DNA from: a virus
Lineage: Duplodnaviria; Heunggongvirae; Uroviricota; Caudoviricetes
Virus record (IMG/VR): IMGVR_UViG_2579778666_000022
Length of the DNA: 27,848 bases
Direction: 5' to 3' (one strand)
Position numbers: made by a program. Positions 1 through 6,000 of this stretch are shown here, in pieces (positions within the stretch are counted from its first letter, which is position 1; each line of letters opens with the position of its first letter).

Positions 1-3000
1 ATGAAGGCTGAAATCAGCCGTAGAAGTCTGATGAAAACCTCCGCACTTGGCAGTCTTGCGCTGGCAAGCAGTGCTTTCACTCTGCCATTTTCCCAAATGG
101 TCCGGGCGGCAGAGGCTCCGGTAGAAGAGAAAGCGGTCTGGAGTTCCTGCACCGTTAACTGCGGGAGCCGCTGTCTGTTACGTTTGCATGTGAAAGATGA
201 CACCGTGTACTGGGTGGAGTCTGATACGACAGGTGACGACGTCTACGGTAATCATCAGGTTCGAGCGTGTTTACGCGGGCGCTCTATCCGCCGACGGATG
301 AATCATCCTGATAGGTTGAAATATCCCATGAAGCGCGTCGGCAAGCGCGGTGAAGGTAAATTTGAACGGATAAGTTGGGACGAAGCCCTGGATACCATCA
401 GTGATAATCTTCGGCGGATCCTGAAAGATTACGGCAATGAGGCTGTACATGTCCTGTACGGAACAGGCGTAGATGGCGGAAACATCACCAACTCAAACGT
501 CCCGTACCGTCTGATGAACTCTTGCGGTGGTTTTCTCAGTCGCTATGGCAGCTACAGTACCGCACAGATCAGTGCCGCAATGAGTTATATGTTCGGTGCC
601 AATGATGGCAACAGCCCGGATGATATCGCCAATACGAAACTGGTCGTTATGTTCGGAAATAACCCGGCAGAAACGCGGATGAGCGGCGGTGGTGTCACTT
701 ACTACGTCGAGCAAGCCCGCGAACGTTCAAACGCACGCATGATCGTCATCGATCCACGTTATAACGACACTGCTGCCGGGCGTGAAGATGAATGGCTGCC
801 CATTCGCCCTGGCACCGATGGCGCACTGGCCTGTGCGATTGCCTGGGTACTGATTACTGAAAACATGGTCGATCAGCCATTTCTCGACAAATATTGTGTT
901 GGTTACGATGAAAAAACGCTGCCCGCCAACGCACCACGTAACGCGCATTATAAAGCCTATATTCTGGGCGAAGGGCCTGACGGCATAGCTAAAACGCCGG
1001 AATGGGCAGCAAAAATCACCAGCATCCCGGCAGAAAAAATTATCCAGTTGGCACGAGAGATCGGTTCAGCAAAACCTGCTTATATTTGTCAGGGTTGGGG
1101 GCCACAACGACATTCCAACGGCGAGCAAACATCCCGCGCTATTGCCATGCTTTCCGTTCTCACCGGCAACGTCGGCATAAACGGCGGCAACTCAGGCGTA
1201 CGCGAAGGTAGCTGGGATCTGGGGGTAGAATGGTTCCCGATGCTCGAGAATCCTGTTAAAACGCAGATTTCCGTCTTTACATGGACAGATGCCATCGACC
1301 ATGGTACGGAAATGACCGCGACCCGTGATGGTGTTCGTGGAAAAGAAAAACTGGATGTCCCCATCAAGTTTTTATGGTGCTACGCCAGTAACACATTGAT
1401 CAATCAACATGGCGACATCAATCACACCCATGAGGTGCTTCAGGATGACAGCAAGTGCGAGATGATTGTTGGCATTGACCACTTCATGACGGCCTCGGCT
1501 AAGTATTGCGATATCCTGTTGCCCGACCTGATGCCAACAGAGCAAGAAGACCTTATCTCTCATGAATCTGCAGGGAATATGGGCTATGTGATCCTCGCCC
1601 AACCCGCAACCTCAGCAAAATTTGAACGCAAACCCATCTACTGGATGCTGAGTGAAGTCGCCAAACGCTTAGGACCAGACGTTTATCAAACCTTTACTGA
1701 AGGTCGCAGTCAGCATGAATGGATCAAATATCTCCATGCGAAAACGAAGGAACGTAACCCTGAGATGCCCGACTACGAGGAGATGAAAACGACCGGGATC
1801 TTTAAGAAAAAATGCCCGGAAGAACACTACGTCGCTTTCCGCGCATTCCGTGAAGATCCACAGGCAAACCCGTTGAAAACACCTTCGGGGAAAATCGAAA
1901 TTTATTCTGAACGACTGGCGAAGATTGCAGATACCTGGGAATTGAAAAAAGATGAAATTATTCATCCCCTTCCTGCGTATACCCCAGGTTTTGATGGCTG
2001 GGACGATCCCCTGCGGAAAACCTATCCACTGCAGTTAACGGGCTTCCATTACAAAGCGCGTACCCACTCCAGCTACGGCAATATTGATGTGTTACAGCAG
2101 GCCTGCCCACAAGAGGTGTGGATCAACCCCATTGATGCTCAGGCACGCGGTATCCGTCATGGCGATACCGTGCGGGTATTTAACAATAATGGAGAAATGC
2201 TGATTGCCGCAAAAGTGACTCCGCGTATTCTGCCTGGCGTTACCGCCATCGGGCAAGGTGCGTGGCTTAAAGCGGATATGTTTGGTGACCGGGTCGATCA
2301 CGGCGGCAGTATCAATATTCTGACCTCTCACCGCCCTTCACCGCTGGCAAAGGGAAACCCGTCGCACAGCAATCTTGTCCAGATCGAAAAGGTTTAAGGA
2401 GTAGCCCATGACCACACAATATGGATTTTTTATCGATTCCAGCCGCTGTACTGGCTGTAAAACCTGCGAACTGGCGTGCAAAGATTTTAAAGTTGGTTAC
2501 GTATCGTTTAAAATCAATTAGATAGCCCGTCATTTCTGCGCTCACACGTCCCAACATTGAAAAACATGCAAAGCTTTGTAAGCCGATGCAAAGCTTTGTG
2601 TGTCTCACTTTTGTCCCAATACCAATCCGAATCCACCCTTTGTCATCATTGAGAAATGGCAAGGAAGAAAAGGATGTTACTGCACGATTTGACAAATCCG
2701 CCAGAGCTATCGCATACTGATCGCACTGAACAAATAAGCGGTCTCCGCACCCGATAGCTTTGCGGCTTTTTTATGCCTGCAATTTGGCATAGTTACATCC
2801 GTACAAAGGTCGGGTGGAGAGGCGTAATACAACACCCGCAAGGGGAATATGCCCAGAGCTTCTTATTTGGCTCAGTTGACACCCGACCGCCAGCTACTAA
2901 CTGGCGGTTATAAACTAAACAAATAAGGAGGTCATCATGACCAGTCAACTCATCCCCGTATTCAACGGTTCTATCTCAAACCAAGCAGCCCTTCTATGCA

Positions 3001-6000
3001 ATGCTCGCAATCTACACGCTTTCCTTGGGGTTGGTAAACGCTTTGCATCGTGGATAACAGAACGTATTGCTGAATATGGTTTCGTTGAAAATCAGGACTA
3101 TATGATTGCTTCCCAAATTCGGGAAGCAAAAGGTAGAGGCGGTCACAACCGCAAGGAATACCACCTCACCCTCGACACAGCCAAAGAGCTTGCGATGGTT
3201 GACGACTGCGTCCAATACTGACTATACTCCGCGCCGAGGCCTCGAAAACCTCCCAAAAGCGGATTAAACCAACCCCGTCAGTGTTGGATTTTTTATGCCT
3301 GTTATTCAGTGATAGCACAGTGTGCGGTCACATCCCCGATCAATGTCGGGAGGGCGACGAATACAACACCCGCAAGGGGAATAAGTCCGCGGTATCTTTT
3401 GGGCCGTTTCGAGCCTCCCGGCACCACATCTTGTGGTGGCATTTCTCGAAAAAAGCCAAAGGAGGTCATCATGACCACTCAACTCATCCCTGTGTTTGAA
3501 GGTACAATCTCAAATGAACCTACGCTTCTGGTGAACGCGCGTGATTTGCATGGATTTTTAGAGGTAGGTAAAGATTTTTCTAACTGGATACGGGCCAGGC
3601 TAAACGAGTATGGATTCGTAGAAAATTTAGACTACATTCTATTTTCGCCAAATTTGGCGAAAACTCCAGGCCGCCGCCGCAAGGATTACCACCTCACCCT
3701 CGACACAGCCAAAGAGCTTGCGATGGTTGAACGTAACGAAAAAGGTCGCCAGATCCGCCGCTACTTCATCGAGTGCGAAAAGAAACTTCGCAACATTCAG
3801 CCAGTACAAGCAGAACCACAGCCGCAATTCACAGCCGAGGAAATCATCCTCCTTTGCTACATGCAGCTCTGGATGGAAAAAGCCCAGGACCTTAGCAAGC
3901 AGCTGTACCCCATAATGAAAGAGCTGAACTCCTCATACACGAACAAGCTGTATGACATTGCGTTTGAGACTATCTACATGGTGACGAAGAACAGAGATGT
4001 GCTACTGAGAGAGGCGGCACGGCTTGACCAGTCGAGTTTCGTAGTTCAGCGGGCCAGACCAATGCTGAAAAGCCTGCGGGCAAGACAATTTGAATTCTGA
4101 TACCAAAGGAGCTTCGGCTCCTTTTTTTATACCTGAACGACAACGCCGCTGAAATCGAAGAGTTAATACAATAAAGAGAAGAGCTCAGTACATTAGATAA
4201 ACATTTTTTATCATTATCTCATTGCCTTTATTCAAAAAAATAGTTACATAACGTTACTAGGTAAAATGCAAACCCTCGCTATTTTTATCAGATTGTATGC
4301 CGGTAACTATAACAAAAATCAGAACTGGAGAAGATGTTTTGTCAGCAGCCATTCACCGCATTGAATGGTTGTTTGAAACATTCTCTTCTGTATGTTTATC
4401 TTTTTCTGGCGGTAAAGATTCCACTGTACTTTTCCATCTTGTAGCCGAAGTGGCCTACAGGAAGAAACGTCGTTTTTCTGTATTGTTCATTGACTGGGAA
4501 GCCCAGTATCAATGCACCATTGATCATATACAGAAGATGCGGATGATGTACCAAGATGTAACAGATACCTTTTACTGGGTTGCACTTCCCCTGACGACAG
4601 TAAATGGTGTCTCGCAGTTTCAGCCTGAGTGGATATGCTGGGAGCCCGGTGTAGAGTGGGTTCGACAGCCACCGGAAGATGCTATTACTGATATGGCGTA
4701 TTTCCCCTTTTACCGCTACGCCATGACTTTTGAAGAATTTGTCCCAGCTTTTTCTTCCTGGTTCGCAAGTAACCAATGTAGCGTGGCAATACTGACTGGA
4801 GTCCGCGCGGATGAATCTCTTAACAGATTTATGGGACTGGTTTCCCAACGAAAACTGAGATATGCAGATGATAAACCCTGGACCACGGCGTCACCTGAAG
4901 GTTTTTACTACACCATGTATCCGCTGTATGACTGGAAAACCAACGATATCTGGGTATATAACGCTAAAACCTGTGCAATCTACAATCCTCTGTATGATTT
5001 GATGTACCGTGCAGGCATTCCTCTACGTAATATGCGTGTCTGTGAGCCTTTTGGCCCGGAACAGCGTAAGGGACTATGGCTTTATCATGTTCTGGAGCCA
5101 GAAACTTGGGCACGGATGTGTGAACGAGTATCTGGTGCTGCCAGTGGGGCTCTTTATGCCAATGAAAGCGGGGCCTATTTTGCCCTGCGTAAACGGATGT
5201 CAAAACCATCCCATCATACCTGGCGCAGCTATGCGTTCTTCCTGCTGGACGTAATGCCGGAAAGAACGGCTGAACACTACCGCAACAAGATAGCAGTTTA
5301 CCTGCGCTGGTATCAGAACCGGGGATTCCCGGATGATATCCCGGATGAACAGGAAAATGATCTGGGCTGCCGGGATGTTCCCTCCTGGCGACGTATTTGT
5401 AAGACTCTCATAAAGAATGATTTCTGGTGCCGAACGCTCTCCTTCAGCCCCAACAAACCCCGGCACTATGAACGTTACCTGCAGCGTATGAATGAAAGGA
5501 GGAAGGAATGGGGAATTCTGTGACACCAGAGGTGGAGGTGCTGAGCAAGATGATTCGACAGTACTTCAGTCAGGAACAATCTGAAGAGAAAACCATACAG
5601 GCCCTGAACCATCTCCGCTGCGTACTCCATGAGATCAGCCCCTTTGCTCAAGAACCAGTGGACTGTGTGCTGTGGGTAAAAGCGGATGAAATTGTCGCTA
5701 ACGATTATAATCCCAATGTCATGGCCCCAAGCGAAAAAAAATTACTGAAACAATCTCTGGAAAAAGACGGTTTTACTCAACCAATTGTTGTTTCGGAAGA
5801 AACAAGCCATTACCTGGTGGTGGATGGTTTTCATAGGCAGTTACTAGGTAGAAGAACAGTTACTGGAAAACGCCTGAAAGGCTGGCTACCAGTAACCTGT
5901 ATTAATCCAGACCGAAAGGGACAAACCTCACGTATTGCCGCGACTATCCGACATAACAGAGCCAGGGGGAAACACCAGATAACCTCAATGTCTGATATTG

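Follow-up and report, generated by a model that had tools for sequence, protein, structure and literature searches.

Antirepressors decide the awakening of prophages, including those of Shiga-toxin (Stx) phages, and how they are themselves restrained is known in few model phages. The question is posed by the IMG/VR virus record IMGVR_UViG_2579778666_000022 (Caudoviricetes), a stretch of 27,848 nucleotides (nt) that was analysed whole and is referred to here as the window. Two AntA-type antirepressor genes stand in it in tandem, each in a cassette of its own, and the two cassettes share short, nearly identical boxes separated by divergent sequence. What are these boxes, and what controls the genes behind them? 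The first-pass annotation took the boxes for linkers at which antirepressor modules are shuffled by recombination. We found that the upstream box belongs to a structured RNA of the Rfam family sRNA-Xcc1, the variable segments of which are complementary to sites at the ribosome-binding site (RBS) of the adjacent gene, and it is likely that each of the two genes carries its own antisense off-switch in the style of phage P1.

The upstream box is the core of a structured RNA

There are exactly two copies of the 23-mer ATACAACACCCGCAAGGGGAATA (2827-2849 and 3361-3383), and none turned up in 100 shuffles even when three mismatches were allowed; a repeat finder lengthens the pair to 29 nt, with 93% identity between 2826-2854 and 3360-3388. 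The RBS-start sequence AAGGAGGTCATCATGACCA is identical at 2925-2943 and 3459-3477, with high identity continuing for about 10 codons, and the two copies of a 54-nt coding box differ by a single mismatch (53/54, 98%; repeat finder; Table 1). When the cassettes were aligned with each other and identity was followed over sliding 21-nt segments, values of 0.8-1.0 inside the boxes gave way at sharp edges to about 0.4-0.6 elsewhere, the background identity being about 55%. The upstream, RBS-start and coding boxes thus lie where the first-pass annotation had placed them, and the pairwise comparison that it proposed bears out their sharp limits, with no sign of uniform divergence. Four bounded boxes can be delimited altogether: a T-run followed by ATGCCTG (2762-2781 versus 3286-3301), which the earlier annotation lacked, the 23-29-nt box, the Shine-Dalgarno sequence with about 10 codons, and the 54-nt coding box.

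A scan of the window against Rfam yielded exactly two matches, both on the + strand and both to RF02221, sRNA-Xcc1. They exceed the cut-off of 53 bits and cover model positions 1-87 of 87 (Table 1). The 23-bp upstream box corresponds to the conserved internal loop and the GNRA-capped stem of hairpin 2, that is, to the invariant core of this hairpin. In the RF02221 alignments, copy 1 and copy 2 disagree at five positions of the closing stem, all of which still pair, and copy 1 folds on its own into a three-way junction (z = -3.2). Loci with the core motif come from Gamma-, Beta-, Alpha- and Deltaproteobacteria, and the core is also present in metagenome-assembled genomes of Acidobacteriota, Bacteroidota, Planctomycetota, Gemmatimonadota and Verrucomicrobiota. 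Lying within an Rfam match whose core spans many phyla, the upstream box does not qualify as a recombination linker, and this part of the earlier interpretation has to be given up.

In Xanthomonas campestris 8004, sRNA-Xcc1 is a discrete 88-nt RNA, as established by Northern blot (a single band) and RACE (PMC2996969). An NCC triplet follows the closing stem in 70/94 and 65/92 leaders, and in the window copies the stem is followed by GCCA and ACCA; the closing stem together with this conserved NCC(A) tail points to a defined RNA end. The family has been noted upstream of symE in Xanthomonas integrons, including the most widespread Xanthomonas integron cassette, and, in APSE phages, ahead of an ORF6N gene (one preprint for each remark), while Xylella has five tandem copies with many predicted targets. 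An RNA-seq entry named sRNA-Xcc1 for strain EDL933 was left unused as evidence, because its coordinates fall on hok in NZ_CP008957, where the core motif is absent; presumably, that paper used another assembly.

A third cassette was observed in E. coli O22:H8 strain 154 (locus L001, 4700-4960), where an sRNA-Xcc1 copy scoring 68.6 bits precedes a BRO gene that is frameshifted. It comprises a promoter-like site TTGACAAATCC, a1 CTGAACAC, b1 ATACAAG-CGG and a hairpin with a T-run, followed by an RNA with a variant hairpin-2 core (GAAAAACA/GCC-GCAA-GGC/UAAGGAUA), a2 CTGAACAC and b2 ATACAAGGA (the names of these sites are explained below).

The variable segments match their own leader, locus by locus

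Two segments of the RNA find complements around it. For the loop of hairpin 3, which we call b', the complement is a stretch of 6-9 nt, b2, adjoining or overlapping the Shine-Dalgarno sequence of the following open reading frame (ORF), and this holds locus by locus. Hairpin 3 is separated from the closing stem by a junction of 6-7 nt (a'), the complement of which, a2, is found 10-40 nt further upstream than b2. Another copy of both sites precedes the RNA: b1 usually lies 60-115 nt before it and is typically followed by GCGG and a hairpin, and a1 lies 10-13 nt before b1. In the minimum-energy folds of both window leaders, computed without constraints, the hairpin-3 loop is paired just upstream of the Shine-Dalgarno sequence.

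The correspondence between loop and target was assessed on 120 loci with the core motif from viral contigs and 120 from genomes, each set being de-duplicated to representatives with distinct loops, and every non-cognate pairing was equally free to find its best register. A coarser duplex test, in which 44 nt of RNA were run against all 100 leaders, ranked the cognate leader best in only 17/100 cases, as the many near-duplicates among the leaders confounded it; de-duplicated representatives with parsed loops took its place. Among 19 viral representatives, b' paired with the 20 nt before its own start codon at -13.2 kcal/mol, versus -7.8 kcal/mol for non-cognate combinations, and a' paired with its own spacer at -4.9 versus -2.8 kcal/mol. 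The upstream 165 nt gave -12.9 versus -9.7 kcal/mol for b' and -5.6 versus -4.2 kcal/mol for a' (24 viral representatives). None of 10,000 permutations reached the cognate mean in any of these four tests, and all four gave the same outcome (cognate better, 0/10,000 each) when repeated on the genome loci (27 representatives).

The energy advantage of cognate pairs could stem in part from a base composition shared by the RNA and its leader. Two further results argue against this explanation. First, among 39 combined representatives, a Watson-Crick run of at least 7 nt was present in 19/39 cognate combinations of b' with b2 and in 33/39 of b' with b1, compared with 0.9% and 6.6%, respectively, of the non-cognate combinations. 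Second, in a subfamily of 14 enterobacterial leaders with an invariant RNA body, none of the pairs in the three RNA helices is changed on both sides and 18/20 of them never vary, whereas in the same leaders 4/8 pairs of b':b2 and 2/5 of a':a2 are changed on both sides. The number of cells changed on both sides was 15 in these leaders versus 4.7 +/- 1.8 in shuffles (0/500), and the covariation score fell from 0.128 to at most 0.055 when the partners were slid by 1-3 columns.

The same relations can be read in the window. Upstream of the RNA, cassette 2 has perfect a1 and b1 sites, and cassette 1 has a perfect b1 and a weak a1. RNA 2 pairs with its own sites at -9.9/-10.4 kcal/mol through b'2 and at -7.4/-7.6 kcal/mol through a'2, versus -3.9/-2.0 and +0.9/-1.5 kcal/mol, respectively, at the sites of cassette 1, a preference for its own sites of 6-8 kcal/mol. 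As loop and targets differ between the cassettes, each gene would have its own specificity.

A high-GC subfamily (loci L003, L006, L031, L032, L072 and L101) has no Shine-Dalgarno sequence, and its loop GCAUGCGG matches CCGCA(U/C)(G/A)C just before the ATG; the loop-target rule may therefore also be valid where initiation makes no use of a Shine-Dalgarno sequence.

Antirepressor-type genes follow the RNA

Most genes behind the RNA are of antirepressor type or encode SymE. On viral contigs, 49/68 distinct downstream ORFs are of antirepressor type, with the domains Bro-N (10), KilA-N (10), Rha (8), ORF6N (8), AntA (7) and P22_AR_N (6). In genomes the fraction is 43/94, with Bro-N prevailing (24), followed by Rha (9), P22_AR_N (4), ORF6N (3), KilA-N (2) and AntA (1), and the SymE toxin is encoded downstream in another 5/94 loci. 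The association agrees with the scattered remarks in the literature on ORF6N in APSE, symE in Xanthomonas integrons and the tandem copies of Xylella.

The Shine-Dalgarno sequence and about the first five codons (GAGGTCATCATGACYAMYCAACT, encoding MT[TNS]Q[LI]; window positions 2925-2965 and 3459-3499) are common to AntA, KilA-N and ORF6N leaders. With leader and first codons common to several gene families, the portable module seems to reach into the coding region.

In Pseudomonas-like contigs (L011, L015, L018, L042, L049 and about 15 similar viral loci), the RNA stands before ORFs of about 80 amino acids (MPHGAPSTPGN...) that have no Pfam match and would form a further family of guarded genes; one locus (L073) carries two tandem cassettes with ORFs of this type, 382 nt apart.

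A proposed off-switch and its alternatives

The preferred explanation, which we hold to be probable, is that a c4-like RNA controls each of the two genes through a' and b', acting on a2/b2 and on a1/b1. Each cassette would be read in the order promoter-like site, a1 and b1, hairpin with a U-run, RNA of about 88 nt, a2 and b2, AntA-type gene. The RNA, either still part of the leader or released from it as a small RNA, would pair with a2/b2 and thereby hide the RBS, so that the antirepressor would remain untranslated in the lysogen. The upstream a1/b1, possibly carried by a short terminated RNA, would compete for a' and b' and lift the block, as IsrK does in Gifsy-1. Release of the RNA, after which it could act in trans, might be due to RNase P, as is said of c4.

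Several observations weigh against this proposal. The promoter-like sites are consensus matches, the number of which in the region is not above shuffle expectation. The pairing of a'1 with a2 and a1 is weak (-2.0 and -4.5 kcal/mol), and b'1, when the stem bases beside it are included, has a second partner in b2 of cassette 2 (-12.2 kcal/mol in a crude duplex calculation); RNA 1 is thus less discriminating, and independence of the cassettes is clear in one direction only. The stretch from the RNA to the start of ant contains no ORF, and hence none comparable to the icd leader ORF. The Rfam models of C4, c4-a1b1 and isrK had no match in 2400-4300 at E <= 10, so that we do not claim membership in the C4 family: the likeness rests on architecture and layout, homology to c4 being undetectable, and the window RNAs are a c4-like variant, not a member of C4. 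Finally, the published view of sRNA-Xcc1 is that of a trans-acting, virulence-linked small RNA.

The serious alternative is a purely cis-acting leader switch, in which the sRNA-Xcc1 fold and the a2/b2 or a1/b1 pairings are alternative conformations of the mRNA and no RNA acts in trans; the choice between them would depend on where transcription starts, on whether it passes the upstream hairpin, on temperature or on a bound factor. A span of about 250 nt on one strand holds all partners, the whole-leader folds described above pair the loop with the RBS region, and the long isrK transcript of Gifsy-1 does take inactive and active structures (PMC4825925). The discrete 88-nt species of Xanthomonas and the conservation of the closing stem and NCC(A) tail, as in C4, speak for a separate RNA, and we regard a switch confined to cis as unlikely.

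Less likely still is an addiction module resembling toxin-antitoxin systems, in which the RNA is an antitoxin that holds back the antirepressor, KilA or SymE and the loss of which kills the cell or induces the prophage. SymE does follow the RNA in some genome loci and in the most widespread Xanthomonas integron cassette, and modules of the hok/sok type occur in the same prophage region of relatives. Most partners, however, are DNA-binding regulators and not known toxins, and the idea largely re-describes the same pairing mechanism.

The model of the first-pass annotation, by which the boxes are linkers kept only as recombination junctions and the upstream box has no function, is improbable to a slightly greater degree. 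It accounts for the sharp box edges, for the hybrid gene joined at the 54-bp box and the mosaic N-domains of short forms (both described in the next section), and for the Shine-Dalgarno sequence and first codons common to leaders of different gene families. It does not accommodate an upstream box that falls inside a covariance-model match to a curated RNA family, compensatory changes in the flanking helices between the copies, or a core kept across Proteobacteria, Acidobacteriota, Bacteroidota, Planctomycetota and other phyla, beyond the reach of homologous recombination, and it leaves the loop-target covariation unexplained.

Very little speaks for an ordinary trans-acting small RNA directed at host or plant mRNAs and only incidentally placed before ant genes: Chen et al. 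2011, as quoted by others, describe sRNA-Xcc1 as integron-borne, trans-acting and controlled by HrpG/HrpX, and many targets are predicted in Xylella, but at each locus the variable loop follows the sequence of the neighbouring RBS, the class of the neighbouring gene is strongly non-random, and the published targets are computational predictions, additional trans targets being compatible with local control.

Returning to the antisense off-switch, we are inclined, with modest confidence, to extend it beyond the window. In this generalization sRNA-Xcc1 would represent a second, much wider class of c4-type immunity RNAs, a portable 5' module whose hypervariable, programmable b' and a' provide cassette-specific translational control of antirepressor-type or toxic genes in the prophages, integrons and islands of many phyla. 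A tandem array, that of the window included, would then contain several induction switches that can be addressed independently, and the joint change of loop and target would reflect diversifying selection for immunity specificities. Both the RNA family and the c4 mechanism are already known. In the literature searched we came across no account of pairing between sRNA-Xcc1 and the adjacent RBS, of the site pairs, of the tie to antirepressors or of the likeness to c4, and an earlier description is possible. If the generalization is true, a common Rfam family annotated as a trans-acting virulence small RNA gains a concrete local function, and hundreds of Bro, KilA-N, Rha, ORF6N, AntA and SymE genes gain a predicted post-transcriptional switch. 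The b':b2 and a':a2 code would be readable from sequence, making cross-regulation between prophages predictable, and the compact, re-addressable design would be of possible use in engineering.

Short antirepressor forms and recombination at the coding box

The first gene product (ORF1) consists of the Pfam domain AntA (PF08346; 89.8 bits, 1.8e-25) with no second domain, whereas the second (ORF2) combines AntA (93.6 bits) with P22_AR_C (PF10548; 33.4 bits), both domain types scoring above the gathering threshold. Over their common part the two proteins are 62-64% identical, more than the "about half" given for the N-terminal domains in the first-pass annotation. ORF2 matches phrog_377 ("anti-repressor Ant") over its full length, and ORF1 matches end to end phrog_6904, a dedicated family of 95-amino-acid short forms in PHROGs. 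A sequence search of the PDB with the antirepressor retrieved no relative. The Ant of phage Phi24B shares the C-terminal region of P22 Ant. In a reporter assay of norfloxacin induction, an ant knockout of this phage was set against the wild type and against a strain in which ant had been complemented, and a role of Ant in promoting efficient prophage induction was proposed by the authors (PMC3064807).

The short AntA form (94-95 amino acids) is widespread and mosaic. We collected about 19 distinct short forms of 92-95 amino acids, 67-88% identical, the N-domains of which are made of different segments and which all end in ...YHLTLDTAKELAMVDDCVQY*; one variant is found on 866 contigs, and the short form retains an open frame. 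The first-pass annotation had suggested that the truncated protein may serve as a decoy or dominant-negative. The short AntA ORF, which in the window is annotated as a pseudogene, is thus a recurrent, conserved form. ORF1 ends six codons past the coding box (DDCVQY*), as had been noted earlier, and these codons with the stop lie in the promoter-like region of cassette 2: the box ends in the -35 hexamer, and the site itself encodes the ORF1 tail. The short form therefore looks like the product of a deletion that fused the coding box to the following cassette.

Locus L005 (IMGVR_UViG_2529292726_000015, reverse strand) contains a single hybrid ant gene of 207 amino acids, in which a cassette-1 leader and N-domain of the window type are joined at the 54-bp box to a C-domain and terminator of the ORF2 type, so crossover at this box does occur. 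Module shuffling thus stands for the 54-bp box, given the hybrid gene and the mosaic short forms, and falls for the 23-bp box, which is the core of a structured RNA. Judging from these sequences, the 54-bp coding box and the box with the Shine-Dalgarno sequence and first codons would be the common stretches where ant modules recombine. The 54-bp box opens with CCGCAAGGAATACC (3149-3162), which resembles the RNA core CCGCAAGGGGAATA (2837-2850); we considered this likeness and judged it a likely by-product of R-K-E/D-Y codons.

Layout of the cassettes and prophage context

Features of the two cassettes are collected in Table 1.

Table 1. Features of the two antirepressor cassettes in the window; pairing sites, promoter-like sites and terminators are predictions
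Feature	Position	Strand	Basis
Promoter-like site, cassette 1 (TTGACA-18-CATACT)	2689-2718	+	Consensus scan 10/12; same relative position as the cassette-2 site and the TTGACAAATCC site of L001
b1, cassette 1 (CAAATAAG; RNA form CAAAUAAG)	2731-2738	+	Perfect complement of loop CUUAUUUG, -9.7 kcal/mol; within repeat pair 2725-2738 versus 2914-2927 (repeat finder)
Hairpin(s) and T-run, cassette 1 (GCGG/CCGC, CCGCA/TGCGG, TTTTTT), then conserved ATGCCTG	2738-2772	+	Sequence, repeat, fold
sRNA-Xcc1 copy 1, c4-like	2808-2896	+	RF02221, 69.1 bits
RNA core, hairpin 2 (AAUACAA / CCC-GCAA-GGG / GGGGAAUA)	2826-2854	+	Rfam match, repeat
b'1, hairpin-3 loop (UUCUUAUUUG)	2860-2869	+	Complementary to 2920-2929 and 2731-2738
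a'1, junction before the closing-stem 3' strand (CAGUUGA), stem then GCCA	2873-2879	+	Rfam structure line
a2, cassette 1 (AAACU), weak candidate	2913-2917	+	Duplex; AACU kept in related type-1 leaders
b2, cassette 1, overlapping Shine-Dalgarno (CAAAUAAGGAGG)	2920-2931	+	-13.1 kcal/mol with b'1, 11 contiguous pairs
ORF1, AntA only, 94 amino acids, start codon at 2937	2937-3221	+	Pfam, phrog_6904
54-bp coding box, copy 1 (RKEYHLTLDTAKELAMV)	3149-3202	+	53/54 identity to copy 2
Promoter-like site, cassette 2 (TTGACG-18-TATACT)	3199-3228	+	Consensus scan 10/12; -35 overlaps the coding-box end
a1, cassette 2 (CUCGAAA)	3241-3247	+	Perfect complement of a'2, -7.6 kcal/mol
b1, cassette 2 (CCCAAAAG, then CGG)	3252-3259	+	Perfect complement of b'2 segment CUUUUGGG, -10.4 kcal/mol
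Hairpin CCAAC/GTTGG and T-run, then ATGCCTG	3269-3294	+	Sequence, repeats
sRNA-Xcc1 copy 2, c4-like	3345-3430	+	RF02221, 73.4 bits
b'2, hairpin-3 loop (UCUUUUGGG)	3395-3403	+	Rfam alignment, duplex, covariation
a'2, junction (UUUCGAG), closing stem then ACCA	3407-3413	+	Rfam alignment, duplex
a2, cassette 2 (CUCGAAA)	3445-3451	+	-7.4 kcal/mol, 7 pairs; covaries in relatives
b2, cassette 2, overlapping Shine-Dalgarno (CCAAAGGAGG)	3456-3465	+	-9.9 kcal/mol; 4/8 pairs changed on both sides among 14 relatives
ORF2, antirepressor AntA + P22_AR_C, 209 amino acids, start codon at 3471	3471-4100	+	Pfam, phrog_377
54-bp coding box, copy 2	3677-3730	+	Repeat finder
Intrinsic terminator after ORF2 (AAAGGAGC-TTCG-GCTCCTTT and T-run)	4105-4130	+	Kept in L005

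The window begins with ynfF (1-2397) and a truncated ynfG, into which the end of a lambdoid prophage of Stx-like type is inserted (junction at about 2486-2509). The region is 100% identical in E. coli G1/2, NCTC9112 and others and in Escherichia phage PhiR5_2, and the Shigella phages 75/02 Stx and POCJ13 are 86-89% identical to it. At least 39 full-length ant arrays exist in E. coli. In RefSeq, 2937-3221 is entered as a pseudogene (antA/antB, incomplete) and 3471-4100 as coding for a protein of the antA/AntB family, with no RNA in the cassette region; a scan for tRNA and tmRNA gave no match. The limits of the cassettes in the window are the promoter-like sites and terminators. A search for LexA boxes near the cassette promoters returned only matches with three mismatches, which are not meaningful, leaving SOS control of the cassettes unsupported.

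Directly after the ant cassettes, at 4297-6152, a PAPS-reductase-like ORF (408 amino acids) overlaps an IbrB/ParB-like ORF (214 amino acids), a pair of the IbrA/IbrB type according to RefSeq annotation. On the opposite strand (6241-15279, -), a Panacea-domain ORF (174 amino acids) adjoins an LPD38 polyvalent protein of 2787 amino acids, which is intact in the window, whereas the annotation of strain G1/2, otherwise identical, gives it a frameshift. A 17-pair palindrome at 2564-2603, just within the prophage, contains two copies of ATGCAAAGCTTTGT at a distance of 20 nt, and a complementary 14-nt copy lies inside ORF1 (3037-3050). They may be attachment-site arm sites or host-factor sites.

Comparison with known systems

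The order of parts in the window cassettes is that of the immI region of phages P1 and P7 (Rfam C4, RF01695, and c4-a1b1, RF03163; clan CL00128). In the annotated P1 record, promoters are followed by a1 and b1, c4 (77 nt), a2, b2, icd and ant1/2, with a2 lying 3 nt after c4 and b2 11-18 nt before the icd start; the hairpin with T-run of cassette 1 takes the position of the P1 terminator hairpin between a1/b1 and c4. The second hairpin of P1 c4 holds b' (UCACUAAC) in its loop, and a' (CUGUCAA) occupies the junction that precedes the closing stem. The consensus structures of C4 and sRNA-Xcc1 agree in length (87 positions) and in plan: a closing stem, a pair of hairpins, the second with a large loop (b'), a single-stranded junction (a') and a CCaCC tail. 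In sRNA-Xcc1, however, the place of C4 hairpin 1 is taken by a hairpin whose internal loop (AAUACAA / GGGGAAUA) is highly conserved and whose CCC/GGG stem is GNRA-closed, and Rfam assigns the family to no clan. The window also differs from P1 in that b2 lies directly at the antirepressor RBS instead of before a leader ORF such as icd, and sRNA-Xcc1 differs from c4 of P1 in forming tandem arrays and in preceding at least seven gene families. Citron and Schuster reportedly concluded in 1990 that short variable segments set the specificity of c4 and account for the heteroimmunity of P1 and P7, and Hartmann et al. are said to have found in 1995 that c4 is processed by RNase P.

Like the IsrK element of Gifsy-1 (isrK, RF01394), each window cassette has an upstream, terminator-ended element that is complementary to a downstream non-coding-like stretch and, in Gifsy-1, controls translation of the antirepressor. 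In the IsrK-orf45-anrP system, the short, upstream terminated RNA pairs with the long transcript and activates antirepressor translation in trans (PMC4825925). Translation there is coupled via orf45, whereas the window cassettes have no such ORF and gave no match to the isrK model. In phage P1 itself (locus L123, 3231-3312), the isrK model matches a1/b1 with the terminator at 35 bits, below its cut-off of 50, overlapping the c4-a1b1 match; in this light, IsrK resembles an a1/b1 element belonging to a c4-type system.

With sRNA-Xcc1 of Xanthomonas campestris (RF02221), the window RNAs share the family, as judged by covariance model, and a length of about 88 nt; the Xanthomonas RNA is described as integron-borne and trans-acting, whereas the window copies are located in the end of a lambdoid prophage.

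Phage P4 offers a parallel in its CI RNA (with seqA, seqB and seqC), a small processed immunity RNA whose pairing partners are short repeated sites on its own transcript. It acts via transcription termination of replication genes and not by occluding the RBS of an antirepressor. SeqA has been called a structural homologue of IsrK (PMC4825925).

In the immI region of phage P22 (sar, Arc and Mnt), the antirepressor of the lysogen is silenced in part by a small antisense RNA, and ORF2 carries the C-terminal domain of P22 Ant. P22 sar is encoded on the opposite strand, across the RBS of ant, whereas the window RNA is on the same strand as its gene and is predicted to pair with it via two short loops.

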